DNA of 64,000 bases from Bilabrum cf. latius (taxonomy: Eukaryota). Made by a program: the position numbers and the translations under genes. This document shows, piece by piece, positions 687 through 63,229 of this stretch. Positions within the stretch are counted from its first letter, which is position 1. Each line of letters starts with the position of its first letter. The notes under the pieces are model-generated. The model saw only the letters and a program-made list of their open reading frames with translations, was not told where the DNA came from and did not search any database. The stretch is from assembly GCA_965178125.1 (NCBI GenBank), contig OZ237753.1:806001-870000 (forward strand). Reading direction: 5' to 3'.

Positions 687-2042
687 TCAGGTCCTGCCTG
701 CCTCGGACCCAGCTCCACTGGCAGGCGGACTCTCTCCGCCGGATGGCTCCGACGTGTCGCCATCCTGAACGGCGTGCTCGTCTCCGTGGCTAGTAGTGGC
801 ACCGTCGGGATGCTCGCCTGCGTTGCCGGGATCCTCTCCGCTCCCGGTTTTCCTGTCGAAATCGTCCCACCGAAGCTCCTGGTCCCACAAAACAACCCCG
901 CCGGTGGAATCCGTAGCAAGCGGAGGCAGCGCAGATCGCCTCGAATTGGAATCGCCGTGATGCTCTGAAGACCGCATTTCTTCACCGCCATGTCCCGGGC
1001 TCGGCGAAGATCTGCTTGAAGCGGACTCGTGCGAAGACTCGCGGTGCCCCTCCGTGTCCGTGTCACCTTCCGCCGCGTCGCTCGCAGCGTGAGAGGCTGT
1101 CGGCATGCCGTCTAAATTGCGGGCAACAGACCACGGAAAGGCGCTGGAAGGGTACTTTGCAGCGTTGCTAATGTCCTGTACGGAAGCACACTCGGGGGAC
1201 GGTGCCGCGGAGGCTTCCCGCGGCCCAGCCTATCTCTTGCTCCTCGAGCAGTTGCTTCGGTGCCGTTCCACGTCATCGAAGCTGAAGCTATCCCACGAAA
1301 CGACCTCCTCGAGGGCATACCTGGGTGTAGGCTCATCGCGTGATTCACTGTCTGCGGTGGAACTGTCACTCTGGTCGTCCTTCAATGGATACCCTGTGGC
1401 AATCACCATCGCAACGTCGAACCGCGGCGGCACCCCCAGCGCCTCTCGCACGGCCGGGCCGTGCAATCCCTCCATGGGCGACGTTGCGAGTCCAGCCGCC
1501 TCGCAAGCGAGAAAGTAGTATCCTGCCAATATGCCAGCTTGCTTTAGCGCCCAACCTTCGGCAGAGTGCGCAGTCGGTATCCTGTTTGGCCCCAGCACGG
1601 CAGATGCAACCAGCAATGCGGCCCGCTTGATTTCCTGGGCCTACGGGCCGAGCGCACCCCCGACTAACACGGCTATTTTTTCGCCCAACCCATCAATGTA
1701 TGCGGCTGGCTTCTGTCCGGCAGCTCGTTCCAGCGCCTCCAACCGGTGCAGCGTTCGCACCGCCTCCTTGTCTGCAAGAAGCACGACTGAAGCCGGGGCT
1801 TCCAGCACTCGCTTCGCGTTGGCACCAGGCATGCAATTTGCTATTGCTCGCTTTGTCTCTTCCTTAGATGCAACCACGAAGCGCCAAGGTTGCAAATTGA
1901 AACTCGAAGGTGCTCGTAGAGATACTTGAAGAACTTGTTTCAGCACCTGTGGATCCAACTATTGCTTGGTATCAAATATATGCACTGACTTCCTGTCTTT
2001 TGTTAACGAATGCAGCCCATCGATAGAGTAGGAGGACATCAT
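687..2042 (-). CDS. Nitroreductase-family flavoprotein with a low-complexity C-terminal tail (~451 aa; 3 in-frame TAG read as Gln)
   Basis: ATG 2042. LTKDRKSVHIFDTKQ[TAG 1959-61]LDPQVLKQVLQVSLRAPSSFNLQPWRFVV matches the nitroreductase RxSxR...APS-NxQPW motif; later GLATSPMEG and VIATGYP. Continues through TAG 1641-43 and 1230-32 to TGA 687-689. Confidence 0.85.
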
Positions 2043-2386
2043 GCGATGCCACCGCGTGAACCGCCGCCGCCGAGGTGCAACTATCGGCTGGCGGCGCATC
2101 GCGCTATGTATGAATCGCAAGCTTGCATCCATACAGTTGCCAGGTAATCGCTGGAAGCCAGCCATAGTGTCAAATGGTGCCCTCGATGCAATTTGCGACC
2201 GATATGCGCGGCGCCGCGATAATTCTGAAATCTCGCCACGGCTCCAAAGTTCGCATCTTTGCAACCTGGTTGTGGCATATCCACAACTTCCAGCCCTACC
2301 ATCACAACAAGCTGCGGTATAACATAATCCTACAAATCTATTGAGGCGCGAGTTCTGTGGTCTAGGCGGGCTGTCGTACGAACAAC

Positions 2387-5300
2387 ATGGACCCAAGGCT
2401 TCGCTCCATGCGGTCGGAGAGCAGCGGTCAAGACTCGGCCTTGGACTATTCTGACTATGCGAGTAAAAGAAATAGTCTGGACAGATCGTTTTCGTCCCGA
2501 TCTGACTACCGAGATGGCGGGGTAGGCCTCGGATCGATGGCCCCTCGCTCGCAAGGTGGTCTCGTAACTGTAGCAGAGGCCAAGACTGCTGGCGATGGTA
2601 CAAGCAACCCCGCCGGTACGAGAAGCGAGCCATTTTCATTTGAAGGCGAGCAGAAAACAGGTTCATCTGCTGCGGGTGTGGCCCCAAGGCTGCAAGGCAG
2701 TCACCACGGTTCTGGCGGTGCCGGTTCTTTCTCTACAGATGAGCTTATCAACATCGCAGAGACGCTTAGGTACAAGATCGATATTAAAGATAGGTAAGAT
2801 TCCTTGAATCGGAGCTTACGAAGCTGTTCGTCTCGATCGCCGTAGACTTGAGGCAATCGGCTCATTGTGTGACGCCCTATGTATGCTCACCGTTTGCTTG
2901 TGTCGATCGACGCGCTTGATCCTTCCGGGTAGCTGCCCTTCAATTACAACTATCTGATGTTGCCTTGACATCACGGGGCACGCTGTAGCCGAATCTGTGT
3001 TGAGGGGAAACGAGCATGGTGGTGCGGGGTTGCCATAGCTGGCAGCAACCGGTGTCCTCCGTGTTCAATTTATTGTGTTTTGAGAGTTCATTGAATGCGT
3101 TGTTGTCTTTACTTGCCAGCGGGGCCTGCTGCTTCACGAATTCGGTGCTGTTCTAGTAGTTCCACTTTGACTTGATCCCGCAGGACATACCGGTTCTAGA
3201 CGTATCGAAGCTGCTTTGTGGGAAGCGAAGCAGTCGATTTCTTTGTGCAATAGAGGATTGCGGACAGCCGCAAAGAAGGCGAGGAGTTGGGCCAGGCGAT
3301 GGTCGACGCCGGGCTGTTCCACCACGTCGTGGACGAGCACAAGTTCGAGGATAAATACCTCTTCTTCCGATTTTACGTCGACGAAACGGTTAAGGAGAAA
3401 CATACACAGTTCGAGAGAAGGCGCCAGCGAGACGGTCTTGGCGTTGCCAAGGTAGCCGCGCTCGCTCGCCCCGCCGGTGCAGTCACCATGCCCGACGGCC
3501 GCCCCATGCCGCATGGGGCCAAGCACAACGAGTGCCTCGTCAAGCAGCTGTAGGGGGCCTGCCAGGGCACCGGGCACAAATCCATGGCCGCAAAGGCTGG
3601 GGCCGGGAGCAGCTACGGCGGCAGTATCGCCTCCGGCTCCGCTGGGGGCTCCTCCGCCTCTGGCGTGGGCAGCGGCGCGACCGGCTCGGACGAGTCGGAT
3701 TTCGCCGCTGCTGAGAGCGGGCTGCGGGCGGTCACCCTTCAGGCCATCGAGGACGAGGACGACGAGGAGGCGCTGGGGGCCACGGCGGTGGCGGCGGCCG
3801 AGGCGGCCGGCCGCGTCGACGCGAGGCACCACTCGTCACACTCCTCGTCGTCCGGGGTGAAGAAGAAATGTTCCGGCGGGGCCCCCGGTGGCCTGTCGGC
3901 GTGCCCTCACGCGGCCGCCCGCGCCCTTGCCGGAACTCAGGGCGTCCCGGGGCAGGAGGGCGTCCTTCAGGCTGCTGCCCCGGGTGCCGTGCGAAGGGGG
4001 CTAACCGACGGCTCCACGCACACGCACTCGCACTCGTCACGCTCCAACACCAGCGGCTCGGAGCCCGCGCACCGCGACACCCCGGCGGCGGGATCTGGAT
4101 CTGGCGGGGCGGGTAGGACGGTGACGGGAGGCAGCATCGAATCAGTGCTGCCCTCCCCCCACGGGCAGTCGCTAGCGAGCGGGGCTGCGCCGGGGGTCCG
4201 AAGCGGGATGGGCTCTTCGGGCCGCGCTGGGATGCTAGCCGCGGGCAGCAGCGATGCTTCGTTCGCCGGGGCACAGGCGGGTCCCGCGGGCACCCCCGCG
4301 GCCCCGTCCACTTTGCGAATGTCCATGCTGGGAGTTGACAAGGAGAGCGCGGTGCTGCTTGCGCTGGCCCGGAGACTCAGGGCCTGCGTGGACGTGAGAG
4401 ATCGGCAGTACCGGTTCCGTGAGTACGACAGCGTGTTTGTGGGCAGCACCGCGGTGGACTGGATGGTCCGCTCGGGGCTGGCCCGCTCTCGGCTGGACGC
4501 GGTTGCCCTGGGCCGTCGCCTGCTCGAGTCTGGGTACTTCCATCACGTGGTGGACGGCCACGACTTTGAGGACAAGCCCCTGTTCTACCGCTTCTACGTG
4601 GACGAGGACAAGGACGCGGAGTGGTTCTGGAAGAAGCACGGGGAGCTCGGTGTGGACGACGACGTCGGCAGGGGGAGGCACGGGACCCTGTCGGGTACAA
4701 CGGGTGACCCCAGTCAGCCGAGGGCATCGACTACCTCGGGCTCTGGCTCGGGTCCTATCATCAAGTCCAGGAGGCAGCAGCTTGGCGGCTCTGCCTGGAG
4801 CGAGCGCTCGAAGCACGAGGGCCAAGGGGGCGGCGGAGACGGGGGTCGTCTGGCATCGGTGGACCTGAGGCACTCGTCCAGGGCCAGCGAAGGGGGCGTC
4901 TCGCCAGGACACCTGGCGGGTAGCGAGGGGGGCAGCAGCCGCGTTCTAGCGCAGGGCAGTAGGCACCGATAGGCAATGACGAAGGGGTCCGCCACGAGCT
5001 GGCGCAGTTCCTGGCGCCTCCGGCCGCACACCACCTGCAACTCTCTCTTGCTTGGTCCCGCCCTATCCGATGCGATCCACGTTGCAGCCAACACTGTGCC
5101 CGTGGGGACAGCGAGGGTGGGGGGCACGGCGGTGGGTGACCCGCAGCAGCTGGGACGGTGGCTCGCGGTCCTCCGCAGACGTGCGTGGGATGCTGCGCTC
5201 TCAGTGCGACCCAACAAGGCCGCGGCCGTGCGTTGGCAGAGGCGCAAGCCCGTGGCCCCGCCTGCGGGTAGCCCAGGCGCAGGCGGCGACGCTACGACGG

Positions 5301-8300
5301 CTCCAGCCCTCTTTACCTGGATGGTGTCCTCCTCTCGATCATCGGCGTCGCAGGGGATCCGGGTGTGGCGGCTGGACGGGCCTGACATGCAGAACAACGT
5401 GGTGTGGAAGACGGAGGCCACGGTCGACGCCCCCCTGCACACGGTGGTCAAGCTGCTCTCCGACACTGGCCTGAGGCGGGAGTGGGACAAGGACTGGCAG
5501 CGGGCGGTGCTGGTCCAGAGCATTCAGGCAGAGGTGCCCAAGCTGGAGAAGGCAGCTGCAAACAACAGCGGCAGCGGCAGCGGCAGACACGGGGACGGGG
5601 ATGGCCGGCTGGCACCCGCCCGCGGCCCGCTCACGTCCATGGACAGCATCCCTTCGACCGCAAACGACGCTGACGAGTCGTTGTCCGATACCTCTGTGAG
5701 TGACAGGCGCAGGGGCCGGCGGGAGCCCTCGTCTGCCAGCGCGGGCCGCCGAGCCGCTGGCGATCGGCACAGCTAGCAGCAGCCCCCGCAGCAGCCGGAT
5801 GAGCCTCTCATCCACGAGACCTTCGGGCGGTTCCTGGGGAGGACCTCCGCCTCTGCCTCCGCTTCCGGGTCCGCGTCCAGCTCGCCCGCCCGCACGCCAG
5901 CCGGCCTCCGCTAGCCCGTTGAGCCCCGGGGGCTGACGGACGCGCTCGACCTCAGCTCCGGCTCCAAGACGTCCTCCACGGACACGCCCTCCGTGCTGTC
6001 CTACCCCAGCGCAGACATGGCCACCGGCGGAGCCCCCCGCCCGCAGGACCTCTGGCTCCGGCTGGCGCGCAGCGATCGCACCACCCTCCGCGAGGCAGCC
6101 GAGGCGGCCCTCCCCGCGGGTACAGACGGTTTGCCGCGGGCCGTGTACAGGCAGATGCAGGCCGTGAGCGTGCTCGCTTCTCCCAGAGATTTCGTGACTC
6201 TGCAGGATGGCGCCACCGTCAGGTTCCGCAGGCCTCGCGCGCTGGGAACGGACCGTGGGAGCTCCCGGCCCAGGGCACAGCGGGCCGCGGTGCTGTACGA
6301 AGTGTCGGTGCAGCACAGGTCCGTGCCCCCAAGGGACGGCAGCACCCGCGGTGAGGTCCTTGCGAACGTGTGGGCGGTCGTGCCCACCGAAGGGGCCCGC
6401 CGCCCGGACAGGCCGGCCATGCTCCGGTCGGAGCTGGAGGCGGCTCGGTACGGTCTGCAGATGGTGAGCACGCAGCGCTGCAGGGTGGTGCTCGTGTCGC
6501 AGATGAGGCTAGAGGGAAACCTGCCCCCGTGGCTCAACGGCACGGTGGCAGACGCGCAGACCCTGGATCCCATCAAGCGGCTGCGAGCTGCCGTGGCCAA
6601 GGAGGGCCTGAGGGCCAGAGCCAACGAGGAGGTGGCCGCGGGGATGGCGCAGCAGCTGAGGCAGCAGGCCGCAGAGCAGGCCCGCAGGCACCAGGCCGAG
6701 CAGGAAAGCAGGCTAAGCGCCATACGGGCCGCGGAAGAGCGGTCGGTGGGGTCTGCAACTGGCGCCCCGGATGTGGCAGGGCGGGACGTGCCGGCGACTC
6801 CCGCAGAGGTAGCGGACATCAGGCGGAGCAGCCCTCCCGGGCGAGGCGCGGGAGTGGTTGGTGCAGTGGGACGAGCTGCCTCTACGGCCGGGCCCACCTC
6901 TCACTCGTCACACGGCGCGTCCGCGCTGCAGCCCCAGCAGCACGCGGCCATCCGCGCGACCTCTGCCTCCCCGCACGGCTCCATGACCCCGCCCGGGACG
7001 GGGGCTAGCATCCTGGCCCCCGGCCAGGTGGGGTCACCCACTGGGCGTGCCGGCTCGGGGCTGAGTGGCGATGGGGCCGCTGGCGGAGACTCGCTGGAGG
7101 GCGCCTCAAGGAGGGGCTCCACCCGGCTGATCAGCTCGGATGGCGCGGATCGGGCTGTTCGGGGAACACGGCGGGTCACCACGCTGAGCGAGATATCAGG
7201 GGACGGGTCCAGCGGCAGCCAGGAGGGCGGCTCGCAGGGCAGCCCCGTGCCCAGAGACCTCACGGCGGAGGGAGAGGCCGCGGAGGCTGCCGCCCTCCAG
7301 TCCCAGGACAGCGGGTCCGTGGGTCAGCGGCAGGACAGCATCATGGTGGCCGGCATCGCGGTCGTGGGCCAGGATGGGAAGGAAGGGGGGCCGGTGGACC
7401 CCGATGCGGGGGGCGAGGAGGCGCCCGAGCCCGCTGCGGTTGCGGGGCGGGTGAGCTCCGGCGGTGGCGGCACCGGCGTGTCACTGAAGGACTTTGACGT
7501 GCTGGCGGTGCTGGGCAGGGGGGGCTACGGGAAGGTGCTGCAGGTGCGGCACCGCAAGCGCGGGGGCGTGTACGCCATGAAGGTGCTGCGCAAGAGCGAG
7601 CTGGTCAAGCGCAAGCAGGTGAGACGGACCCTGACCGAGCGGGACATTCTGTCCAAGGTCAGGCACCCCTTCATCGTCAAGCTCGAGTTCGCCTTCTAGA
7701 CGGACAAGAAGCTGTACATGGGCCTGGAGTTCGTGTCGGGGGGCGACCTCTTCACGGTGCTGTCGAGGGACGGGCTCGTGGACGAGACGAGGGCGCGGCT
7801 GTACATCGCCGAGATCGCGCTGGCGCTTTAGTACCTGCACGAGCACAGCATCGTGTACAGGGACCTCAAGCCGGAGAACGTGCTGGTGGACGCCCAGGGG
7901 CACATCAAGCTCACGGACTTCGGGCTGTCGAGGGCCGCTAGGGTGCAGAGGAGGCCCATGAGGATGCTTCCGCTGGGCGCGCGGGCCGTGGTGGAGTCGA
8001 GCGTGCCTCCAGGGGCGCCTGACGCTGCCCGTGAGGCGGTGCGTGCCGCGGATGAGGCCGAGGACGGTGTGGCGGGCAGCGTGGAGCTTGGGGAGGGCGG
8101 TGCCGACGGTGCGCAGGAGATCTCGTACTCGTGGGCAGGCACGGAGCTGTACATGGCCCCGTCCATCCTGCTGTGCAGGGGCCATGACGAGCGGGTGGAC
8201 TGGTGGTCCCTGGGCGTCCTCATGTCGGAGATGATTACGGGCAGACACCCCTTCAAGGGTCCCAACCACTACGGGACGCTCAAGAACATCGTGCACCCCA

Positions 8301-9157
8301 AGGCGCCCATCCAGACCCTCCGCTGGCTGAGCCCCGCGGCCGCAGACCTCATGTCTGGCTTCCTGAGGAAGGACCCGGAGAAGAGGCTTGGGTCAAGGAC
8401 GGCGGGCGGCTTCGAGAGCATCAAGAACCACCCGTGGTTCGCGGGCCTGGACTGGCAGGCTGTCTACGACAGGAGGTATGCCTCGCCCTACGTGCCCCGC
8501 ATGCGCACCGCCGAGGACACGACCAATTTCGACGAGGTGTTCCTCAGGGAGGCCCCCGTCGACTCGGTGGCTTCCTCCGTGGGCGGGCTGGAGCTGCTGC
8601 AGCCGGGCAGGCACAAGGACGGCAGCGAGGCCAAGCCGCTGCCCATCCGGTCCGAAGAGGCCGTGCAGCAGGTGTGGTCGGAGGCGAGGCAGCAGGCGAA
8701 GCAGCAGGTGCGCGCGGAGAGGGCGGCAAAAAAGGCCAAGCAGCAGGGGGGAGCAGGGATGGCGCTACCGCCCGCTGCCAGTGGCGGGACCAGGGGTCAG
8801 GGGTCAATTGCGGGTGCGGGTGCGGGAGCAGATGCGGGGGCGGGTGGCTCGGGTGCTCCATCCGGTGCTCCATCCGGTGCGGGGGGTGCGCCGGCGCAGG
8901 ATTTCTTCGGCTTGTTCCGGCCTGCGGATGGAGCAGCAGCTGCATCAGCCGGTGGTGGCGGCGCAGGGGCAGGCCCGGGTGCTCCCGGAGTGGACGCGGA
9001 GATGGGCCTGGAGCGGGGGGGGAGCGGCGGACGGATCACGAGCGCCATGTCAACCGCCTCTGCTACTGAGGCCACGGAGGAGCTCGCCAAGAAGCTGCTG
9101 TGGGATTTCCCAGCCTTCGATTTTGTAGCCGCAGAAGTAGATGCGAGCCTGGAGTGA
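2387..9157 (+). CDS. Multidomain AGC-family Ser/Thr kinase: DEP-DEP-START-kinase-AGC C-tail (~2126 aa; exons 2387-2793, 3184-9157; 8 in-frame TAG)
   Basis: GT-AG intron 2794-3183 restores DEP1 (IKDRTYRF[Q][15 protein letters not shown]...[20 protein letters not shown]). DEP2 ~4375-4605 ([23 protein letters not shown]...[10 protein letters not shown]). START motifs RREWD, SPRDFV, GNLPPW. Kinase [38 protein letters not shown]; tail NFDEVF and FPAFDF. TAG at 3197, 3251, 3551, 4970, 5774, 5912, 7697, 7829; TGA 9155-57. Confidence 0.9.
2794..3183 (+). other. Spliceosomal intron (390 nt, GT-AG)
   Basis: Donor AG|GTAAGA, acceptor CCCGCAG|G; removal restores the DEP motif KDRTYRF in frame. Confidence 0.85.
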
Positions 9158-9601
9158 TTGGTGCTTTCGGCACCGAAAATGCCTCAAAAAACGGCTACTA
9201 GGTAGCCCGTTGGTTGAGATTAGTCGACGCTTGTGGTGCTGCCGGTGTTCCTGCGCGAGCGGAGAGGCCAGAATTACCATGCTCGCGTCAATTTTGGCAT
9301 GCTGGCAACTTGATCGTGTATTTCTGCGCACAAGTAGTTTAGCTTTCATGTTGAGACATCCAGAATGTCCCTGTTGTCCTGCTCCCATTTCCTTCCCCAT
9401 TTGGTTGGAAGGGGGGGCAAAAGCCACTTGCAACCCCCGCCGACGGGGGCACTCACCAGTCTACCCCTCTGGCAGTTGGGGTCACAACGCGGTTTGCGTC
9501 AAGACCGGGAGACAAACTGCATCGGTACACGAAAGTCCCGAGCCTATCCGTGCCTATACTGGCACTCAAACTATTAAGAAGGTCTGAATTTTCCAAGTAG
9601 T

Positions 9602-12600
9602 ATGCTTGGACGACTGTCGCGTCCCTCGAGCATCCAGTGCTGTTGCATGCTTGCAGGGGTCGTGATATTAAGCACCGAATCGGCCAGGGCTGCGCTACAA
9701 GCAGGAGAAGGATCCATGCCGATGCGTATTGAGCTTGGACTTTAGCGAAACTCCAAACGATTGAGATCAGCGTCTGCTGGAATGCCCGTTCTCGACGAGG
9801 ATGGCGAGTTTGGTTCAGCATTGTGCGAACTGGGTGCGTCTCCCTACGGTGACGCTGATTTGATCGCCGCGGCTTCTAGTGAAGAGGGCGAAGTCCATTT
9901 CCTGCATGTGTCTGCCAATGCAGACGCGGTGATTCTCGGTAGAAACGTCTTTGTGGCAGGTACATCCAGCTTTAACCTGCGCGACACAAACTCATTCGGC
10001 ACCAGCCTTGCCGGGTTGCCAGACTTGGATGCGAACGGCTGCCGTGACATGATCACAGGTATGCCAACAGGAAATGGGACCGTCGGTACGGCCGCAGTGC
10101 TGCGGCTAGGAGGGCCATACTGCGACGAGGTTCTAAACGCTACACTTCTTGTTGCTGGCGAGAGCGAGCTAGTGGGCATTACGTAGCACAAGGAATTCGG
10201 CATATCTGTGGCAAGTCTACTTACTGCGCCATTTTATATCGATGGTGTCGCCCGGGTGGCCGTAAGCACAGTCAGCGGAGGAGGCGACACCGGCCGCGGA
10301 GGAATTCACATCCTCGAGCTCGCCAGCAACGGCTCTGTCGTGGGCACCCCCACCCTGCTGGCGAACGGGACGACCAAGATCGGCGCCGGGGCGGGTGGAT
10401 CAGGCGTGAAGCTCGACTTGGAGGAGGAAGACCTTACCAGAGTGGGCACCGCCCTCGCCGTGCTCCCATACGAAGGTCCAGCAGGGCCGGGCACCAGCCA
10501 GCGGGAGAGGCTGGTGGCGCAGGTATACAACGACGACATTCTAGAGGTGGGCATCGCGATCTTCGATATCGAGCACGTGCGAGGCATCGGGATCGCGCTC
10601 CACGCTTACACGGTAATCAATCCGTACAGCAGCAGCCAGCGACCATTCGGCATGTGGACATACGACATGAGCCTCTTCGGCGACGCCATCGCAGGGGCCG
10701 GAGACGTGGATGGAGACGGTCACTGGGACCTGTTCGTGGGCGTGCCAGCGATCGGGAGCAACGAGGGCGGCGCTGCGGTGATCCGGCTGGACGGCTCAAT
10801 CCATCCTATCGAGGCGCGGGTTCTTTCCGAGAGCTCCGCGGCGGTCTGGAATACCGACTTCGAGATTGACGAATATTTTGGAAGGTCTGCAGCCCTTGTG
10901 AACTCGTCGAGTTTCGGGAGGCGCATCCTGGTGGGCAGCACTGGCTTCGACTCGGACACTGGCGCGCTCCACGTTCTCAACCGCATCGAGAACTCCATGG
11001 TGGGTGGCTACAAGGGTGACGGGTATCTCCTATTGGCGCAGGATACGGAGGATCTGGGTCCGCAGCTGCAAACGATCGGAGTCACGGAGCTGCGGGAGGA
11101 CGGCGAGTTCGGGCTGGCCGTGGCCACGTGCGGGGACTGGGACGGCAACGGGGTAGAGGACTTGTTCGTGGGGCAGCCGGACATCAGCAACGAAGACACT
11201 GGGGCGGTATACGGCCTGTACATGCACCCCAACGGCACGGTCAAGGAGGCGTTTGTTATCCACGGCGAGGACAGCGAGCTGAGCGGGTTCGGGATTGACG
11301 AGGACTCCGAGTTCGGCATCGGCCTGGCCTGCTTCATGGAGCCCGACGTGCCCGAGAACCCATCCCCGTACGCGGGTCTCCTGCGCCTGGCGGTCGGGGC
11401 CACCAAGCACGGGACGGACGGAGTCGTCTTCGAGATGGCGCTGCATCCCTCCAACGGAAGCATCGCCCACGGCATGGTGGCGGTGATCGATACCGCTGAT
11501 CCGGTCGTGAGCGGCGCCTCGGACGACGACGACATGGGCAGCGGCCTGGCATACCTCAGGAACGCGACGATCATTGTCGTGGGCCAGGACGACAGCGAGA
11601 ACGTCTTCATCCTGCGGCGTGCTCGAAATGGGACTCTTGGGCAGGTAGACGAGCTCCATGAGCTGTCCCAATCGTTCGTGGGAGACGACTCCGACGATTA
11701 CTTTGGCAACGGAATCTCAGCTTACAGCGACTGGAACGGCGACGGGCTGGAGGACGTGCTCATCAGTTCGGAGAACGGCCACTCCAGCGAATCGGGGGAG
11801 GTCTTTCTCGTGGCTCTGGATGTCGACGGGGCGCCCATCGCGTACAAGGCCGTGCGCGGGGACAGAGAGGGAAGGGCGCTCGTTGGCGTGACGGACGAGG
11901 GCGATTTCGGGACCAGTGTCGAGCGGGCGGGCGACCTGGACGGAAACGGTGTGGAGGACATAATCGTGGGTGCGGACGACGACCGTGCCCCTGGCGGCAA
12001 CACCGGGAGCATGTATGTTATTTTCATGGGGGAGGGCGGAGAGGCCCTGGACTCTTTCAAGATCTTTGGGGCGAACTTTGGAGGTACTGTGATGGAGCAG
12101 GACGCCATCGGAGACTCAGTGGGAATACTTAGGGGCTGCAAAGTGCCTGTGCAGGACCCCGAGAGGGCAGCACTCGAGTACTGCTTCGTGATCGGAGCGA
12201 GCGACATGCACTCCCCCGACGACGAGTCCGGAGGCGTGTGGCTCGTGGCTCCTTTCGGGTCGCAAGAGATGCGCGTTTCAGTCACTGACGTAGAGAGCGG
12301 GAATCTGACGCTTACGGCTGAGGGTATGAAGCCCAACGTAACCTCACGATTGTATGGCCAGGCACAGGCCAGCTACGTGGGCGACTATGATGGCGACGGG
12401 GAGCAGGAGGCTGCAATGGCCGGCGTTGATGCAGAAGACACGAGCTAGGGCGGCAGCATCCTCCTGCGTCTGTCAAACGGTGCGAGCAGTCCCATCACTG
12501 CCCGTATCGAGGCTCCCGCGGGCCAACCCGCGTCGCTGGCGATGAACTTCTCCGGGGCTGTCTCATCCGCTGGGCTCGTGGACGGAGATGCCGCGGAGGA

Positions 12601-18346: not shown

Positions 18347-18379
<33 letters not shown>

Positions 18380-29039: not shown

Positions 29040-29073
<34 letters not shown>

Positions 29074-30948: not shown

Positions 30949-31001
<53 letters not shown>

Positions 31002-33169: not shown

Positions 33170-33200
<31 letters not shown>

Positions 33201-51302: not shown

Positions 51303-51471
51303 TGCGCGCGCAGCTAAAATCAAGTCAAGTGCAAGGCTGGGGCGCTTTGGGGGGCCAATGGATTTTTTGGAGTGCCTGCTGAGCTGCCGCGAACCTCGCA
51401 GAAAAAGGTTGCAACCGGTCCGGCGGCTGGTCGTTGTCGGGACTAAAATCCAGTGGTAGTTGGTAGCAAGC

Positions 51472-54400
51472 ATGGGAAACATATTTGATTGTGCCTCCAA
51501 TCCACTGGATTCGTCTGTCCATATAGATGATGGCTCGCTAGTGTCAGTTTCTCTGGCGAGATCCGTTCCGTTGCACAGGAGTTGTGTCTGGGACCTTCAG
51601 AAAGCCTTCTATGCTGCTGCTGGGCCACGAGCTTGGGCAAAAGAGACGGTCCCATCGTTCTTAACCACCAATGCGTACTTAGCGAGGGCATATGCCAATG
51701 TTATCCTCGGTGTGATGCACGATTCGTTCGACGGCGATCGGTCGCTGTAGCGGACGTCACCAAAGTACAGGCTCCATGCTGGCCTCCCGCGCGGGTACAT
51801 TTCCCGCAATGGGTAGCCACCAAGTGCGGCAAAGCCAGCGCTGGGCTGCATTGGGCTTTCCGAGCGGGTTGCAGCCCTGGAGTCGCAGCTGAGCTGCGAA
51901 TCGCAGACTGCGGAGAGTGGGTCGGAGGCCCCGTCAGGTTGCGCCACGGAGCCGCCGACGGGAGATCGAGTGCCTTCTTACGCACAGCCGTACAAAGCCC
52001 TAGGCGGCGATCCCTCCCGGCCTTGGGGTGGCTCCTGCTCCGAGCCGATCTACATTCTCGAGGTGGGCGCGGGCCACGGCCGGCTCGCCTTCCTAGTCCT
52101 CGAGTTCCTGCGCCGCTCGAGGGAGTACTTCCCGCGCTGCAGCACCGAAACTGGCATCCCCTTCGTATACGTCATCTCGGACGCGGTGGAAGCGAACGTT
52201 CGCTCGCTGGAACAGAACGAGCAGCTGGCCCCCTTCGCTCGGCTGGGATGTCTTGACTTTGCAGTGGTAGACGCAGATGCAGATGCAGGGATGGGAATGA
52301 GGGGGGCATCCGGGGGTACAGAGGCGAATGGAGGGTCAAGCAGGGCATATGACGAGGTGAGCGTGCTGCTTCGAGCCTGCATGTGGTGCTGTAGTGCCGG
52401 CCTTGTGGATCCGCTGCCAATGCCACATGCACAGCAAGCTGACGGCTGCATGCACTTTGGACTTTATATCACTGATGCGTCATTGTTCTCTCTACTTTGT
52501 TTGCCCCATTTATGCATTCCTTCTTCCTCCCTGCGCAGATCACACTCCGTCGCTCCGGAGTCGTCCTCAAGCCCGGCGCACTGTCGCACCCACTCGTGGT
52601 GGTCGCAAACTACGTGGCCGACAGCCTGAGGCAGGCCGCCTTCCGCATCGATGAGGGGGTCGTGACGAGCGGCGATGTCACGGTGCGCACGCAGATTCCC
52701 GCAAAACCGGAACCCGACCGCGAGGACGGCGAGTCGACGATCAGCAGCCCGCTAGTAGCAGCAGCCAAGGGCACACCGAGTGGCAGCGGTGGCGCTCAAG
52801 CAACGGAGGCCAGCACAGGCAGGAGCAGCCGAGTGCATGGGGCAAGCGGGCTAGACCGCGGCAAGCCGCCTTCCTCCGCCGTCGGTGACCCAGACGGGGC
52901 CAGCCAGAGCCTGCTGCTGCCCAGGTCCCTGCTGCAGGCCCGTCCTCGATTGCAGGTGGGTCAGCAAGACGACGAGATGGTGCGAGCAGCCTGCCTGCCA
53001 GAGCTCGCCCACGATGCCTTCAAATCAGCGGATGTGAGGTGGAGCTTCTCCAGGGAAGTGCTCTCGGCCCAGGACACAGCACCACCGGGACAGGGACAGA
53101 GCCACAGGGAGGAGGGCGGGGGAACTGGTGCCGGTGCGGGCACAGGTGGTGTGGGTGCGGCTGCAACGGGTTCCATCGGCTCGGCAGAGATGCCATCGGT
53201 GTCTGCGATAGACCCGGATCCCGACACCGCAGAGGGTAGGGAGGAGCTCAGGCGGCGGGCGGCAGCCGGTAGGTCGCTGCTGGCGCGCGCAGCCCAGTGC
53301 ACTGGGGGCGACTACGATGCGGCCGCTGTGCTGCTAGAATACGCCGCCCTGCCTGCCCTCAGACGGGGTGCCGACGTGCTGCTGCCCGTGGGAATGTTCC
53401 GGCTGCTGAGGAGGCTCCACTCGATCGCCGGTGGCAAGATGCTGCTGCTCGCGGCGGACAAAGGTCACGTATTCCCCGAGGCATTCGAGAGGGCCCCTGC
53501 TAGCTGTGGCATGCCAGCGGATGCGGGTGGGAAGGGGCCGGCTGGTGGCGGGGTGGGAGTGGGTGCATCCGTCGGTGGTTCGGCAGCCAGCGGCAGCGGG
53601 GCAGTCACGGCCGAGTCGGTCGAGGCACGCTCGGCAGTGGATGGTGCTCTGGTGCGTGGCAGCTCACGGGCGGTGTCACCTGTCTCGCAGAGGATGGCAG
53701 GAGACAGCGCAGTCGGCGGTAGGATTGAGATGACGGCACCGGCATCGGCAGGAATCGCCTCCTCAGATGGTACCCGTGTCCACAGCACCCTCCCCGCAAT
53801 CGGGGCATCCTCCGCTACATAGAGCAGCCCCGTCCCCAGCGCCCTGCACCCCTTCGAGAGGCCGCTCCACGGCGACCCGCACGTCGCCGTGCACGGCAGC
53901 ATCTCGTTCATGACCAACTTCCACGCCCTCGCGAGGTGGTTCCACAGGCGCGGCGGGGAGACCGTGGCCACGGGGCGGCTGGAAGGGCTCAAGGTATTCA
54001 TGGGGTGGGCAGGCGCTCCCGTGGGCGGGGCACCGCGTGCTCGGCTGGCCTTCCAGCAGCACGTAGACCCGAGGGGCTTCGCACCGGAGGATTTCAACGT
54101 GCTGCAGCGAGAGATCAAAACGAAGGTGCCCGGGGCGCCGCTCCGCCTGTGCTTGGCTCTGCTGCGGCTGTCCTCGCACGACACTGAGGTCTACTGGAAG
54201 CTGCACAGGCGCGTCCTGCAGACGTCCAGGGACCCCGAGATGAGCGTGACCGTGGACAGGGATGCGGCCATCGACGTGGGCCGGCTGGCGCAGGGCAACT
54301 TTCCCGTGGTGCAGCGACACGACGTTTTGTTCGAGGCCGGCCGGTGGATGATGGTACTGCGTCGCTTCGACATCGCTGCCCAGCTGCTAGAGAGATCTCT

Positions 54401-54845
54401 GCAGCTGCACGGCGAGCATTACGTGACCCATCACAACCTCGGCATATGCAGGTTCCGGTGCGGGGACGTCGAGGGCGCGCTGGAGGCGTTCGATGCGTGC
54501 CTTAGGCTGAAGCCTAGGTACAAAGAGGCCAGGGCGTGGTTCGACAGAGTGCACGGCAAGCTCTCGGCTACGTTGTCGTCGGGGCAAGGGGGCAGCCGGC
54601 CGCGGCGCCGAGTCAAGAGCGGTGAGAGTGGAGGCGATTCAGGTGCGGGTCGAGGTTATGACCGCACCAGTGGGGACAGCACCACCTCCACTAGTAGGAC
54701 CCACGGGGCCGCGTCCCGGATGAAGTCCGAGGCAGGAGCGATGCTAGGGCACGGGAGGGATGCTGCGGCTGGCCAGGCAGTGGCGAGGGGTCGCGGGTTC
54801 CAAGTGGCGGCGGGGATGGGGCCCAGCCTTGCTGGTGGCATTTGA
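51472..54845 (+). CDS. SAM-dependent methyltransferase-like protein with C-terminal TPRs (exons 51472-52356, 52539-54845; 3 in-frame TAG)
   Basis: WDLQKAFY...VPSFLTTNAYLARAYA, motif I IYILEVGAGHGRL, YVISD, VVVANYVADSL, HGSISFMTNFHAL, and TPR HHNLGICRFRCGDVEGALEAFDACLRLKP. Intron 52357-52538; TAG 51748, 51814, 53820; TGA 54843-45. Confidence 0.82.
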
Positions 54846-55383: not shown

Positions 55384-58155
55384 ATGGTGGAACTTATGTG
55401 GTGCAGTTTGGCTCAAACGGCTGCTGAACAGCGCAATGCTACCAGAATCGCGTCCAGTTGCTTCGTAGGGCTATCCCGACTGGTATCTGAATCATTCGAC
55501 CAACGCAGCGAAGTCCCATTCCCACAAACATGTAAACTAGGTCAAAATGAGGCGGTCGCAGAGGCTAGAAGAGCCCTGGCATTCGCAAGATTGGCCGCAG
55601 ATCGTACCAATAGGGATGCCCAGGAGGCCATCGCCGGGACCTTCGGACCGATGGTCCAGCCGCAGCATGGCCCAGCAGCATATCCTAGTCGCTGGAAGGA
55701 GGCTATAGATGCCATTCATCGGGCCCATCTGCACGCAGCCGAGTGTTTTGCTGCCAGTGGCCGATTGTCGAAGTGCCTTGAATCATGCACTCGTGGTATT
55801 TAGATTGACGTCAGGGCTATGGGTCTTATTACGAGGTCAAGCAGGATGGACTCTCACAAGCTGAGATCAGCGATAGCTGCGTTGGCACTGAAATAGTGCA
55901 TTAATGCTGGGTGGGCTTGCAGCAAGGCTCCTTCTGAGGGTCCAAGCATTGGCACGAAGGCCCGTTCGCAGCACCATCACACAGCATAGAGAATTCAATA
56001 GGCCACCTTGCACTGGACCCAGGTGCTCTTGGACTCGCTTCAGGAAGGTGGACCTCGGCAGTGGCCCATGCAAGGGTAGGCGACGAGCTGGTGCAAGCGA
56101 GCTGCGGCCCTGCCAGCAGTGCCTCGAGGGGCCCGACCAGCAAGCTCGATGCTAGCCGCTTGCGAACATCGGGCAGGGACTGGTGCGTCGGGCAGAGAAT
56201 TCCCGTCATCTAGTGGTACGTGTGGCGGCACTCAACGCATCATACTTCAGCGTAGCCCTCAAGGCGCTGCCCCAGTCAGCCGCACCTCCACGCGGGCAAA
56301 GACAAGCACGGTGGCAGGAGCAGAGACAGCCCCGGCCGATGAAATGAAGCGACTAGCCTCCGAAGTACTCCGCAAGGGTGATCACAGCAAGCGAATTGCA
56401 TGTATAATGCAACATTCCGAGGGTACTCTCGCGTGCGCCTGGCTCATCTGGCACACCAGTAAGGTGCGTGCCCTGCGACCATTGCGGGTGGAGCTGCTGG
56501 CGCACATGGTCCTCGCCGGGAGGAAGGGGGTAAGTGGCATACCCGTAATCCTTTGCAAGTAGCTCGCCGCAGACCTGGGGGCCGCTGGCGACTACGATAG
56601 AGCGTATAGAGTGTACCGTTGCAGCGCCTAGATGGAGCTCACGAACATGGGCTAGACACGCCAGCGCCTGACAGATGGCCCTGCGAGCAGCTCTTCAAGT
56701 TGGCTCCCGTACTCTGCAGCAGAGCTAGAGGCACTACGCACCAAATTTCAACAGAGAACGAGACACAGTTCAGATTTCGAGACTGGAACCAAGAGGAGCT
56801 CATAGCGATTTGCTAGCCCGCTAGAACAACCGGAGGCAGCCCGCTCCGCCACCACGGCAGTGCCAGTGCCAGCTGGTAGAGAGCCGGGCCCGCAGCACAG
56901 CATCGCCGACCTCATGCAAGAGCTCAAATCAATCGAGGCTGCCGAATCAAAAGCAATGGATACCACCACTAGCGAGCTGGTCCGTGTGATGGACGAGTTG
57001 ACGCCAGCAGCTGCCCCGTCCTCAATGGAGGCTCGACAGAGGCAGCGCACCGCAGTCAGCTTCAGGCAGGCCCTCTCACTGCGGCCAGATCCGCAGGCAG
57101 GCACACTAGATGCTAGCACCCACAAAGACTATAGACCCACCGACCTCCTTGGTGGCGAAATGGCTTCGAAGGTAGCGACGGTGCTGCCTCCAGGCGTTAA
57201 TGATGCGGCGCTCGAGCGATCTAGACAGGCGGACGCTGACGCAGCAGTGAGCAACCTCGCGGCTCTGCGGGCCCAGCAAAGGCTGCTGCACACCGCGCGG
57301 GCATCCACGGGGGAAGTTCCTGTCGCGAGGCACTCGTCACCAAGAAGCAGGCAAGCTGTCCCATCCAGAGGGTCTGAGCGATTCGGGTTTAGCTCCAGCT
57401 CGTTCCGGTTCTCTCGCGACACGGCAGCAGCACGTACCCAGCACGAACAATTGAAGCAAGTACGACACACGTGGAATATTACGGGCAATGCCAGCCCGCA
57501 ATAGCTTGAGCCCAGCCCGGAGGCGCTGCAGAGCGGCACCTGGGCCCACGTTGGTACTGTCGGAGCGGGCACTCTGCCCCAGCCTGCAGCAGCCAGGCTT
57601 CGAACCCTCCCGCGAGTCCCAGGCGCAGTCATGGGGCAGGCCCCAGTGCGACTGGGCGATGAAACTGCGCGCGGGATCGATACCCTCATCCGGCAGATTA
57701 GCGACCATTCCGACCATTCCGGCACGCAGACTCGGCTCGACGTCACATCTGCATTCTCGGCTGGCTAGTCGCCGCTGTCTACCAAGCGGGCAGCACACCG
57801 CGCGTCCATGCCGCGGAGCACTCGCCCAGGCCGAGAGCTTGCTGGCCTTGAGGTGGATTGTGGCAGGGGTAATCGCAGTGCACCTGCCCTGCGGCTGAAG
57901 GGTCTGGTCGACGGGAGGCGAAGCGGCATCGCCGAGTGGAGGGCAGAGGTGGGCAGGCTGTGTGATGCGGCGCGGGAGAGACAGGCGAGAGGGGACTTGC
58001 ACAACAGGCCAACAACTGGCAGGCCCTCGAGACTGGCATAGACCCGGACCTTGACTGGCTCGGTGACTCGCGGGGTTGTGGATCCGGTCAAGGTGCGGCA
58101 GGCGCTTGCATTCCAGGAACTAGTCGCGAGAAATACACTCGGAGACACGCAGTGA
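55384..58155 (+). CDS. Hypothetical protein (~923 aa; 12 in-frame TAG)
   Basis: One frame from ATG 55384 to TGA 58153-55, interrupted only by TAG (55801, 55894, 55987, 55999, 56077, 56560, 56629, 56653, 56803, 57502, 57766, 58039). No domain recognised. Confidence 0.68.
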
Positions 58156-58198
58156 AATGATGTAACATGCCCGTTGTTATCAAATAGCCTACGCAATA

Positions 58199-61100
58199 TC
58201 ACAGCTCCGTCACTGCAGACCCAGTGAACTCAGGCTCGTCGGACTCACGCCTCTGAGCTGCTGCTTCCCTGCGCAAGTCATCTTCCGTGGGACCTCCAGC
58301 ACAGCAGCAGCACCACCACGGCGTCGCAGCGGGCGCACTGCTTGCCTTGATTTCTTTAGAGCCACCGGCTAGCTTGGGACCGGTGGTATCTCCCCGCCCC
58401 GGCAGGTCTTGGTCCGCTCCCGCGTGTGCCTTGCCGTCTGCGCCGAAGTACTGCTCGGGCTCGCCGAACCCGTCGTCCACGACTAGCCTCTGACCTCGAT
58501 CAGCATCATACGTGTCGCCTTGTCCATGACTGCTAGCATTACCACCATCGTTTGGTCGTTGGTTCTCCCCTGGATGCTGCTGCTCAGGTGTCGGCAGCTC
58601 GATCATCGTGTCGGTCGAAGATGCAGCACGAGCATCCCTCGAGGGGCGCAGGGCGGTCTGCTCCTCCTTACCTGGCTCGCCCGAGTCTTTGCTGTCTAGC
58701 CGCGGCCTGGATGTGGCCTCCCTGCTAAGCTTGGAACCCTGGCTCCTGACTTCATCGCCGCGCATGCTGTCACCACCCGCGAGCGGCTGCAATCTGGGTG
58801 AGTGCGGCTCACTGTGCTTGCTCCCGGAGAGTCCAGAGGTAGCCCCCGTGCCGCCGCGCTCCCGCCGCAATGCCTCTGCAGCTGCGTCTTCCTCTGCGTC
58901 AACATCCGCGCCGAATGCACCCACGCCTGCGGTTGCGTCAGACACGGCAGACCCCACCGACTCGCGGCTCGAGCGCCCGGTGCGGCCGGTGAGCGCCCTG
59001 TCCCTGCGGAGCGCAGTCCGGGGCGAGCCAGCGCGGGGTGTGGCCACTTGGATCCCAGAACCGCCCATGGCCCCTGTGCCAGCACCGTCTGGCTCGCTAT
59101 CACGGGTGCGTGCCGCTTCGCTGTCTTGCTCCGAGTCAGCATCAACGTCCACGTCCTCGCCATCCAGCTCGGAGCCGATCGATATGCCAGACCTGGCCTT
59201 GCTGTGGAAGGGGGGCATGGTCCGGCCGGGCATCCCTTCGGGGCTGAGGCCTCCAGGGCTCTGCCGATGATGACCGGACCCTCGGCTGGACGGTCGCACA
59301 GGAGCAGCAGGCTGCTCCGCCCCCGCTGGACCGTCTCCACGCCCTGCCGCCTGTGCCGAGCTCTCCATCCCGCTTGGGGGCAGAGACGGCTTGCGAGTCT
59401 CTCCACCGCCCACCTCGTCGTCGTCATCTTCCTCCGCTGCGTCGTGATCGATCCCAAAGTCAAAGCCTTCCTAGCTGAGCCGACGGCTGCTGGACTGCGG
59501 CGTCTCGTATCCACTCCCGAATCCCAGGTCAATCGGGGGGCTTGGCGACTGAGGCGCACGCACCCGCAAGTTGGCGAGCCTGTGCGGCTGGTGCGGCGCT
59601 CCACTGTTTCCATTGGTCGGGGCCGTATCAGGGCGCAGTGCGGTACTAGCCCTGGGTGCACCTGGCAGGCCGCCAGTAGCACCACCCCCGCCTTGCGCCC
59701 GCTCGCCTGCAGTGGCCGACTTGCCGTGCTTGCTGCCCCTACCTCCCTGGGCCGTGTCCTCTCCGTTTCGAATCCCAGTTGCCATATCGACCTCGTCCTG
59801 CCCGCTGGCTCCGGAACCCGCATGTGACGGATCCACACCATGACTGCTCACTACCTCGGAGGTGCTATTTTCTGCGTCTGTTGTCTGACGCTTTCCCACC
59901 TGGTTAGTGTCGCTGCCGGCCGAAGCTACTGCTGCAGCGACCAACGTGATTGAGTTGTCAGTTTCAGAGTCTGTACCGTGCGTTCCACTACTTCTGTCCC
60001 TACTTGATGCTCTGCTTCCATCTTGCTCGCTTTGTGTGGCTCTGCTGATCTCAGTCGACAAGTCACCGGCCTCGTCGACGTCGTGCACAGCGCTGCCGCC
60101 GTCGTCCAAGCCTTGGCCGGCTCCGCCACCACCCACCGGCGGCGCACTCGAATGCGCCACCGAGTGAGCCGTGCCACTCCCCTCCAACTCCTCCGCGGCA
60201 CTACTGTCTGGAAGCGGGGCCAACATCCCGACGCGAGGAACTGCACGACCCCTGTGGCGCCACGCCTCGCTGCCGACGGCTGGGATGGCAGGCTCTGACC
60301 GAGTGCGCAGCTGCAGGGCATGGCGGTTCGGGTTGAGGAGAACTGGGGCAGCAGTGCCTGCCTGGGTACCTCGCCTGAATGCGGATGGAGCTGCAGTTGC
60401 AAGCCGCCGCGCACTCGGAACGAAATCACCGTGCAATCCCCCCGCACCATCGCCCGCACCATCACCGGCAGCTTGATGACCTCGGGCGGCAGACTGCCTC
60501 GGCACATCGCTAGCACCTGCAGCCGCATGCTACCCAGAGCGCCTGCTCTCCGATTTGGAGTCTATGGTAGACACCTCCAGACTGGACAAGCCCACACTAG
60601 AATCCGTGCGCTGCCGCACCTGCGAGTTACTAGGATCCAAGCCGATAGACCCCACGCGGTGCATGTGCGTGTCGGATTCAGCCGGTAGCTCCGGTTGCCC
60701 GTCCTAAAGGAGTATGGGCTGTGCTTGCGCCACCCCCTTGGTTCCGCTACGGCGCCGCCCCGCCTGCTTGCGGGCGATCTCGCTGTAGCCAACCGCACCC
60801 CCCACGCCTTGATGCGGGCCGGGCACTGCTGCGCTGAGGTCGCCGGAGTAGGGCCCTATGGTGCTCCCGCGCGTGATGGCCGAGCCGGAGGTGATCCCGG
60901 AGACGAGGCTTCCCGCAGATGGCTTCCGATCGATGGGAACGTCAGCAGCTGCATCGCCGGCAGATCCTCTGCTGTGCCTACCGCTGCTAGTGCCTGAGCC
61001 CCTGTGCCGCCTGCTGCCGCGCACCTCCAGTCGTCCGGAGTATCGCCTCCTCCCGGACAAACTGCCCTGCGGTGAGGATGGCAGGCCCATCAAGTCATCC

Positions 61101-63229
61101 GGAGAGGTGGCGGTATTCATCTCCAAGTCGAGATGCAGGTCCTGGCGCTGCACCAGCATTGCACCCCTGGCAGAGGCACTGACGCTGGAGCCTGTCCCAC
61201 TGAGTACGGGCCCCCGCGGCTGGGGCAGGCCAGGAGGAGCAACTGGCTGCTGGTGCTCGTGGTAATCCTGTCCCTGCTGCTGCATGCGAGCCAGCGCATC
61301 CGCGCGTGCCTCGCTCTGCCTAAGGATACCTGACTGCCCTTCCCTACGAGGCGTCTGCTTGGCGGAGCGGGCCCGCCTTGATCCGCGCCCCTGACCCAGT
61401 CGTCTACCTGCCTTACTGCCTCCAGATGAACCCAGTTTGCTCCTCCCTGGGCCAATCACACCGCGTCTCTTAGCGTCCCTCGCCCTCGGCACCTTCGGCT
61501 AAACCCGACGGAGGTCCCTTTGCCGAGCCTTTTCTTGGTTTTGTAGAGCCTTCAGTTCGTTCGCGAGACGCCTCGATGGCCGGGATCGGGAGGCGGAGGG
61601 CGCTCGAGCCGCAATCGATGCGTACCCAGGCGATAGGGATGCTGCCGCCGGGGCCCGGCCTTGGGGGGGTGGCGTGAGCGAGACCTTGTCCGGATCCGGG
61701 GTGCCTTTGTTCTCCCGAGCAGTGGTGACACGCCCCGGCCTGCTCTGTGTCCGGCGGGACACGGCACGGCGAGGAGCGCGTCGGGGCTAGCTACGTCCCA
61801 GCCTCGACTCGCTTTGCTGTTGCATGCGGGCTCTGGCAGCAGAGCGCGCCCGATCGCCGCGTGACCTAGATCTCCCGGCGGAAGAGTCGGCAGCGTGCTG
61901 CATGCCAGCGGTGGTCTTGCGAGCAGCTCGAGGCGACCTGCGGCCCCGCCCCCGCCCCTGTCCCAGCCCACGTCCCTCAACTCCTGCCACCTGTCGTACT
62001 CTGTGCTTCCGAGACGAGCTGCGGTTCGGCCGTGTAGAACGACCCTGTCTGGGAGAATCCACACCGCTCAAGTCGCCATTGCCAACCTCTGCATCCATCT
62101 GCCCCTACACTGCCGCAACAAACCGATGGGATGAAGCGGGTGCAGAAATATCTGCCCCACCATTGGCAGCTTCACCTAGAGCCGGAACAACGCCGCTTCT
62201 TTCGTCATCCGCCGGCGTGCGATGGCTCATGCCGAGCTCGTTGGGCATCGGATGGGCACGTAACACCGACTGCAGCTGGGCAGCGAGCGCAGCCTGCAGC
62301 TCTGCAGGATTCTGTACATGGTCCGGCTGTAGCTCTGGACGAGTGTGAGAACCAGAACCAGCTAGTCGGGGGTCCTGCTGCTCTCGCACTCGTGGTGCAT
62401 CTACTGGCAGCTGCACCGCTCCACCCCCACCACCCCCTCCACTGCCACCACGAGATGTGATCGAAGCGCGGTCCCCGAGCTACACAATCCCACCGCCGGT
62501 TTCCTGCAGCAATTCAACCTCCTTGTCACCGTTGGTATCGGACGCAGGCGTGTCCCATGGGCCATCACTGGCCCCGGCAGGTGACCGGTGCTCACTATAG
62601 CCTGTGGGCAAGTGGCGAGACCGCTGCTGGAGGCTGTCTCCTGCTTGTTTGCTCGCTTCCGAGGCATCTAATCGGATATGGAGCCTACTGGTCTGTCTCT
62701 AAGGGCTGTTTAAATCGGTATTCGTGAGACTTTCTATTGGCATGGTGCGACTGCCAGGCTCTCGACGGTCCGTCGCACGGCCGCTCCTGACGGATGACGG
62801 GCTGAATGGGATCGAATCGCGATACCCAGCTGTGGTTTGTACATCTGCTGGTGATGCAGGGTCGTTGGCTCTCGAACGATTCGAGAAGGCAGAGCGTCGC
62901 TGTGGAACGTCTTGCTATCCCTCAGGGAGCCTCGGCAAAACATCTCCTTGATGCCTGCGTTCGATAGGCTCTGCAATACCATGGCCGCCATTCTGTACCT
63001 GGCCGTGCGATTTAGATATCAGCATTGACAAATCGACTTGTGCAGCAATACAAGACGCTTTTTCGCTGCGTCCAGGAGAAACTCCACCGGTGGGTCGCTT
63101 GCTGGATTCACCTCTCGAGCCTCTCCAGTTCAGGTCAGCCGATCTGTGACGATCTCGGGCTCGATGTTTTTCAGAGGCAAGTCTCTAAATCTGTGCTTGG
63201 ACTTCGTCGAGAAGCGTGTGCCCAGACAT
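58199..63229 (-). CDS. Large disordered Ser/Gly/Arg-rich protein with a C-terminal WWCCCC cluster (~1676 aa; 10 in-frame TAG)
   Basis: ATG 63229 (MSGHTLLDEVQAQI[Q]RLASEK) to TGA 58199-201 in one frame; the only interruptions are TAG. Confidence 0.72.

Follow-up and report, generated by a model that had tools for sequence, protein, structure and literature searches.

The window analyzed here, a 64,000-nucleotide stretch of contig OZ237753.1 (positions 806,001 to 870,000; positions below are counted from its first letter), holds 17 genes on both strands whose reading frames are interrupted by the triplet TAG and by neither of the other standard stops. We consider it very likely that UAG is read as glutamine (Gln, Q) in this DNA, with UGA (mostly) and UAA terminating genes, and that the DNA is nuclear and comes from a GC-rich eukaryote with few introns, most likely a heterotrophic stramenopile close to the bicosoecid Cafeteria.

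The longest stop-to-stop frame in the standard code is 762 codons, a length that is unchanged when TAA is read as sense and that rises to 870 codons when TGA is; with TAG as sense, the longest frames reach 2507, 1994, 1684, 1680, 1364, 1314, and 1229 codons. Eighteen untrimmed stop-to-stop frames, distributed over both strands, contained 109 in-frame TAGs. Cut back to starts and exon edges, the same frames comprise 18,696 codons with 105 TAG, no TAA, and no TGA in frame, compared with 113 and 142 TAG, 31 and 40 TAA, and 216 and 329 TGA in the other two frames of the same DNA. Because all three triplets are frequent off-frame, these counts indicate that TAG alone acts as a sense triplet. They bear out the claim of an earlier note on this DNA that 17 genes are broken by TAG and never by TAA or TGA; the 18 frames amount to 17 genes because two of them (51292–52629 and 52512–54845) look like one intron-split gene. 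If TAA were also a Gln codon, used in the ratio of CAA to CAG (149:610), about 26 in-frame TAAs would be expected by our own arithmetic, against none observed. TGA terminates 16 of the frames and TAA two (15/17 and 2/17 when counted per gene), and both appear to be stops still. The GC content of the window ranges from 0.585 to 0.703 per 4-kb bin. The genes are listed below in the order in which they occur, with GC3 denoting the GC content at third codon positions.

687..2165, − strand: gene of the nitroreductase family whose product ends in a long acidic tail; three TAGs (1961, 1643, and 1232, first codon base, − strand); PF00881, E 4.6e-24, and PDB alignments.
2387..9157, + strand: DEP-DEP-START-AGC kinase gene; exon 1 2387–2793, intron 2794–3183 (GT..AG), exon 2 3184–9157, stop TGA, as defined by Pfam and spliced contigs; TAGs at 3197, 3251, 3551, 4970, 5774, 5912, 7697, and 7829 (+ strand).
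9602..14617, + strand: FG-GAP repeat protein, secreted or membrane, that carries an (STSP)n stalk; four TAGs (9743, 10184, 12446, and 14600); PF01839, E 4.8e-26.
14786..15879, − strand: GPN3 (GPN-loop GTPase 3); exons 15879–15835, 15743–15635, and 15543–14789; stop TGA; PF03029, E 7e-47; PDB GPN3, E 1e-57.
16149..20240, − strand: Gly/Asn-rich low-complexity protein of 1363 codons; 5 TAGs; no Pfam family.
20949..23231, − strand: coiled-coil protein; stop TAA; TAGs at 20993 and 20969, which are 14 and 6 codons ahead of the stop.
23474..26038, + strand: protein that matches no known family; GC3 low, at 0.59; 10 TAGs.
26214..28019, − strand: Cys-rich secreted repeat protein; signal-peptide-like start at the methionine at 28019; 5 TAGs inside.
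28165..35661, − strand: low-complexity protein of 2498 codons; 15 TAGs; (AQ)n tract at 30949–31002 and Q-rich tract at 32788–32817.
36582..38339, + strand: RuvX/YqgF-like protein; 1 TAG (37119); PF03652, E 1.9e-09, score 38.4 bits (cut-off 29.2).
39379..43044, + strand: TALE (KN) homeobox protein; 13 TAGs in frame; PF05920, E 1.3e-12.
43396..47301, − strand: CDC16/APC6-like TPR protein; stop TAA; 4 TAGs; TPR_8 above cut-off.
47517..49163, + strand: beta-lactamase-like serine hydrolase; 6 TAGs; PF00144, E 3.3e-36; 15 homologues, the best 40% identical.
49417..51171, − strand: LMBR1/LIMR membrane protein; 1 TAG (49626); PF04791, E 5.1e-21; 157 homologues.
51292..54845, + strand: TPR-containing protein in two frames; 4 TAGs; an intron whose end lies near 52537 probably connects the frames.
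55384..58155, + strand: frame of no known family, 923 codons; low GC3 (0.61); 12 TAGs.
58199..63229, − strand: low-complexity protein of 1676 codons; 10 TAGs.

With TAG read as X, Pfam families were found in 10 of the 18 frames, and several domains extend across TAGs, in line with what the earlier note had described. The families that reached their curated scores were Nitroreductase, DEP (twice), START, Pkinase, FG-GAP, ATP_bind_1 (GPN), RuvX, Homeobox_KN, TPR_8, TPR_2, Beta-lactamase, and LMBR1. The label CDC16, also given in that note, stood in part: among solved structures the top eight distinct sequences matched were all CDC16, APC6, or Cut9 (best E 5.7e-17), but Pfam ANAPC3 fell under its cut-off (23.7 versus 27.2 bits). 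A word-based homologue search with the N-terminal part of this protein returned nothing at E <= 1e-8. The N-termini beginning at 9602, 28019, and 47301 are signal-peptide-like or conserved, and TAGs sever them from the rest of their proteins, as had been noticed. The N-terminal exon of the LMBR1 gene was not located.

Codon usage, scored with each gene left out of its own model, indicates that the frames remain coding-like beyond the TAGs: of the 92 segments between TAGs that span 30 codons or more, 68 had their best score, and a positive one, in frame 0. The same scores bear on a dual role for UAG, the alternative that survives best and one that we nonetheless regard as unlikely, in which the codon would specify Gln within genes and would still end translation, at least in part, close to the 3′ end of certain mRNAs, like the stops of context-dependent codes. 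TAGs lie 4, 5, and 6 codons ahead of TGA or TAA in three of the 17 genes (26228, 14600, and 20969); by our arithmetic, the overall 0.56% TAG per codon predicts about 0.6 such genes. In addition, TAG 1232 comes after the nitroreductase domain. However, the 180-codon tail past TAG 1232 is clearly coding-like in the same frame, scoring +31.0 in frame 0 versus −11.0 and −53.2 in the others, and every final segment of at least 37 codons scores best in frame 0. Moreover, if the three near-end TAGs were stops, the presence of another in-frame stop 3–5 codons on in all three would be improbable (~0.1 each, by our estimate). The sample of near-end TAGs is small, and they could reflect chance, relaxed constraint on C-termini, or residual termination at UAG. 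On these grounds we prefer full reassignment over a dual role.

The identity of the amino acid is indicated by the alignable TAGs that fall in conserved columns. The single TAG of GPN3 (15371..15373, − strand) occupies the Q position of DCPGQIE, an instance of the DxPGQIE motif, in all three printed PDB alignments (GPN3, an archaeal-type GPN-type GTPase, and GPN1). In the kinase, where columns were counted over the 149 best representatives among the homologues aligned, TAG 7697 (7697..7699, + strand) falls in the Q column of the AGC-kinase motif 'FxFQT', which holds Q in 135 of the 149, other residues in 11, and gaps in 3; S6K1 also has Q in this column. A second kinase TAG, at 7829 (7829..7831, + strand), lies in the helix 'ALALxYLH', in a column that is more variable across the 149 homologues (E 62, G 29, Q 23, D 12), and the database protein P0157 (156 aa), which is 92% identical to the window kinase, has Q there. 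A second fragment, P0161 (150 aa, 97% identical), ends exactly before TAG 7697 and P0157 begins at the next Met, which suggests that a close relative shares TAG 7697 and that its kinase seems to have been cut up by standard-code gene calling. Both short fragments were returned by an exhaustive homologue search, and they come from public assemblies with contigs of ~10 kb. A metagenome scan with P0157 as the query gave only distant kinases among the matches listed (best 61% identical), one with LMBR1 as the query found no relative, and a metagenome locus considered as a source of the relative's DNA (L001) proved to be an unrelated AT-rich kinase locus.

Glutamine-rich tracts and codon statistics point to the same residue. 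The pair 'GCC TAG' heads a perfect (GCA CAG)x8.8 array, which places a TAG inside the (AQ)n tract of the 2498-codon protein, and its Q-rich tract, Q-X-Q-P-Q-E-X-Q-Q-Q-X, contains three TAGs (X). Across the frames, Q occurred within three residues of a TAG 47 times versus 26.6 expected (1.84-fold, permutation p 0.0012), close to the 1.99 with which Q clusters around itself. When mean BLOSUM62 scores were summed over the 10 alignable TAG columns, Q ranked first (11.3), followed by E (5.2), K (4.8), and S (3.5). Counted as Gln, the 105 TAGs stand beside 610 CAG and 149 CAA and make up ~12% of all Gln codons. The frequency of TAG per codon is lower in genes of higher GC3 (rho −0.59, p 0.01) and correlates positively with the share of CAA (rho 0.50, p 0.03), which matches the expectation for a synonymous, A/T-richer Gln codon. 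TAG thus behaves as a third, minor Gln codon that is commoner in low-GC3 genes. The genes themselves form two groups by codon usage, one with GC3 of ~0.59–0.64, a CAA share of 0.27–0.39, and mostly high TAG density (<=1.3% of codons), and the other with GC3 of at least 0.70 and mostly low TAG density.

That UAG might instead encode another polar residue, Glu or Lys, is very improbable in our estimation. Glu is the commonest residue in the column of kinase TAG 7829, Lys dominates the columns of DEP TAG 3197 and nitroreductase TAG 1961, and these two residues rank second and third in the summed BLOSUM62 score. Yet both strongly conserved columns, those of GPN3 and of kinase TAG 7697, have Q; the 92%-identical relative has Q and not E at 7829; TAGs stand at the Q position of the (AQ)n array and in the poly-Q tract; and TAG and CAG are one transition apart. 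By-eye comparisons of the DEP1 and DEP2 domains with each other and among the Cys-rich repeats placed R, S, or D opposite TAG and were uninformative. The identification of UAG as Gln made in the earlier note is therefore well supported, as the conserved Q columns, the close relative, the Q-rich repeats, the summed score, and the synonymous behavior agree with it; no residue aligned with TAG better than Gln. The genome-wide extent that the earlier note proposed would be an extrapolation from this one window.

Contigs from four studies show that the TAGs persist in other data sets and, as far as spliced contigs cover them, after splicing. A 5,982-base stretch (window 3176–9157) is present in runs of at least four studies, with 0.74–1.00 of its words recovered, and we compared four of these runs (X1, X5, X6, and X7) with window positions 600–20500. 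A 44.9-kb contig of X1 matched 600–9794 and X7 matched 4446–11997, both with no differences. Contigs of X5 and X6 lacked exactly two introns, with joints of GT..AG for the + strand gene and CT..AC for the − strand gene, and differed in no other letter (X5, 3182–9350; X6, 3182–7470 and 7444–8733; both runs, 14875–15743). The missing segments are the 390-nt GT..AG intron of the DEP-kinase gene (2794–3183) and a 91-nt intron of GPN3 (15544–15634, with 15543 joined to 15635 in both X5 and X6). Some genes of the window therefore do contain introns. The other GPN3 intron, at 15744–15834, would also be exactly 91 nt, and the introns of the window are few and have GT..AG ends. From the splicing, the coincidence of contig ends with gene ends, and the differences in depth from gene to gene, we infer that the spliced X5 and X6 contigs are transcripts. 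TAG was unchanged at all nine sites that they cover (eight in the DEP-kinase gene and one in GPN3), and CAG was seen at none of the TAG sites compared in the four runs, a substitution that the earlier note had named as one that would overturn its reading. The retention of TAG in spliced contigs and the identical sequence in four studies argue that the TAGs are neither assembly errors nor sites altered by RNA editing. Untranslated TAGs, arising from pseudogenes, assembly errors, or editing back to CAG, are thus extremely unlikely, having nothing in their favor beyond the mere presence of standard-code stops, and against them a single stop triplet in frame, the agreement of the contigs, and the simultaneous disruption of conserved genes such as GPN3 and CDC16 that they would entail.

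The same comparisons yielded several side observations. The runs from four studies that carry window 3176–9157 are filed under four different organism names, and runs labeled 'Algae metagenome' and 'protist metagenome' carry small shares of it; the organism may be a frequent companion in cultures of other species. In the FG-GAP region (9547–13005), X5 contains a second form with 170 differences in 3459 bases (~5%), and X1 has both forms (depth 19.8 of 30.1); a 3-base indel lies near 13489–13491. The second form, which resembles what a diverged haplotype or a paralogue of recent origin would give, keeps TAG 9743 and TAG 10184 as judged from the differences listed (40 of 209), an observation that is uninformative either way.

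Other features of individual genes are as follows. The nitroreductase gene and the DEP-kinase gene are arranged divergently, with ~100 bases between the ends of their RNA-like contigs (2162 and 2265), a spacing that points to a short promoter region common to the two; the contigs of the nitroreductase gene span 600–2162. In the 5′ leader of the DEP-kinase gene (2267–2386), an in-frame TAA and a TAG precede the first ATG (2387). The (STSP)n stalk of the FG-GAP protein is a tandem array (13625–13948) of 26 copies of a 12-base unit, located between the FG-GAP repeats and a C-terminal membrane anchor. In the Gly/Asn-rich protein, the C-terminal half (16149–18000) is composed of Gly/Asn runs with recurring 'GDAFGG' and 'APAPAP' units and includes a perfect 63-base duplication (16681–16803), and the first two TAGs (19967 and 19919) lie in sequence that is weakly coding-like by frame scores.

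Placement of the organism was based on LMBR1. The best named relatives of the window protein were from Cafeteria roenbergensis (41%), Bicosoecida sp. CB-2014 (38%), and Cantina marsupialis (36%), followed by diatoms, Triparma, and Aureococcus (30–35%). In a maximum-likelihood tree of 36 rows, all of them stramenopile and with no outgroup from outside the stramenopiles, the window protein was sister to the Cafeteria clade (Shimodaira–Hasegawa-like approximate likelihood ratio support, SH-aLRT, of 95) on a long branch (0.86) and fell inside the non-ochrophyte, non-photosynthetic group. A bicosoecid-related stramenopile is therefore the most likely source of the DNA as judged from this protein. 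A search of a protein atlas with the TAG-free LMBR1 frame confirmed the LIMR/LMBR1 family and was uninformative as to lineage.

For the mechanism we adopt, by analogy, the scheme proposed for Iotanema spirale, in which a tRNA that reads UAG and ignores UAA is argued to need the anticodon CUA, with tRNA-Gln(CUG) as its simplest source, and in which changes in the release factor eRF1 are anticipated at its contacts with the third-position G (PMC5304391). Applied to the present organism, the scheme would have UAG, and not UAA, read by a tRNA-Gln whose anticodon, CUA, differs by a single base from that of tRNA-Gln(CUG), and eRF1 would have lost or weakened its recognition of UAG and kept that of UAA and UGA.

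Several observations weigh against this interpretation as a whole. No tRNA gene and no Rfam match, rRNA included, occur within the 64-kb window, and the eRF1 gene lies outside it, so that the tRNA and eRF1 steps are predictions; the placement among stramenopiles comes from a single gene tree; and no Pfam family was found in eight of the 18 frames. The library types of X5 and X6 were only guessed automatically, and X5 was flagged 'probably DNA'. The near-end TAGs in 3/17 genes make some termination at UAG possible. Most alignable TAG columns, seven besides those of GPN3 and of kinase TAGs 7697 and 7829, are variable and have no Q majority: those of the beta-lactamase-like protein read A7/S1/E1/D1, S5/D2/G/E/Q, and A6/P2/L/V, those of the DEP domains K,S,K and H,E,I,Q, and that of the nitroreductase K,K,K,P, and we rejected all of them as residue identifiers because they are too variable. 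The LMBR1 column over 120 matches is T29, E22, R19, Q13, and K12, with Q in 8 of 19 rows of a hand-picked aligned subset and in 7 of the 11 nearest printed rows. In a two-sided version of the leave-one-gene-out test, only 57 of the 105 TAGs had coding-like sequence in the same frame on both flanks. The failures fall into three groups, namely low-GC3 genes that fit the model poorly, among which even TAG 1961 inside the Pfam nitroreductase domain fails; signal peptides; and sequence that is probably non-coding. The last consists of the first ~900 bases of the homeobox frame, where 6–7 TAGs lie in a stretch (39379–40300) that is not coding-like by frame scores, and TAG 28139, which lies upstream of the Cys-rich gene and probably outside it.

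Separate reassignment of UAG with UAA kept as a stop has long been thought constrained, and UAG-only changes are reported in few lineages, namely Iotanema, a rhizarian (UAG=Leu), Scotinosphaera (UAG=Ser), and some ciliates (PMC5304391; PMC11687900). If our reading is true, the window adds a further independent case, in a stramenopile whose genome is GC-rich, for which AT pressure is no explanation. As genomic DNA is at hand, the changes in tRNA-Gln(CUA) and eRF1 should be directly readable. Annotation is affected as well: gene callers that apply the standard code truncate the genes of this organism at each TAG, as the fragments P0157 and P0161 illustrate, so its genes will be mis-annotated wherever they are found, in cultures or in metagenomes.

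A code with UAG as Gln and with UAA and UGA as stops resembles NCBI code table 15. A close likeness is to Iotanema spirale (Fornicata), in which UAG is described as a Gln codon and the other two triplets as stops (Panek et al. 2017, PMC5304391). As in the window, UAG alone has been reassigned, to Gln, with UAA kept as a stop, and the same scheme of tRNA-Gln(CUA) and altered eRF1 is predicted in both. In contrast, Iotanema belongs to the Metamonada and uses UAA as its primary stop in that account, whereas the window organism falls in the Stramenopiles by the LMBR1 tree, uses mainly TGA, and has a code read from genomic DNA that is GC-rich. Among ciliates, Protocruzia tuzeti and two phyllopharyngean lineages are reported to have reassigned UAG to Gln without UAA (McGowan et al. 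2024, PMC11687900), as in the window; these are Alveolata, whereas the window has high GC content, an ordinary compact gene order on both strands, and another affiliation by the LMBR1 tree. The UAR=Gln codes attributed to many ciliates, hexamitin diplomonads, oxymonads, some ulvophyte green algae, and Amoeboaphelidium (PMC5304391) also turn stops into Gln, presumably via mutated tRNA-Gln genes, but they read UAA as Gln too, unlike the window with its lack of in-frame TAA. Use of UAG as Gln with UAA as a stop is thus already known elsewhere, and it is the stramenopile lineage that appears new.

A literature search in which subscription journals and supplements were outside the scope found no nuclear code change in a stramenopile, and its broader queries returned only lineages already named here; together with the LMBR1 tree this makes the earlier note's suggestion of an independent and undescribed reassignment plausible. 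We give about even chances to a fuller proposal, that this is the first nuclear code change in stramenopiles, an independent capture of UAG by Gln in a GC-rich, bicosoecid-related flagellate with UGA as its main stop, in which the apparent concentration of TAG in low-GC3 genes and its apparent over-representation just ahead of stops could mark an incomplete reassignment, one where eRF1 still acts on UAG to some extent and this is tolerated solely close to C-termini. The nearest named relative by LMBR1 (41% identical) is Cafeteria roenbergensis/burkhardae, a heterotrophic stramenopile. Cafeteria has a GC-rich, intron-poor genome and uses the standard code, and its LMBR1 (593 aa, uninterrupted in the database) has Q in the column where the window has TAG.

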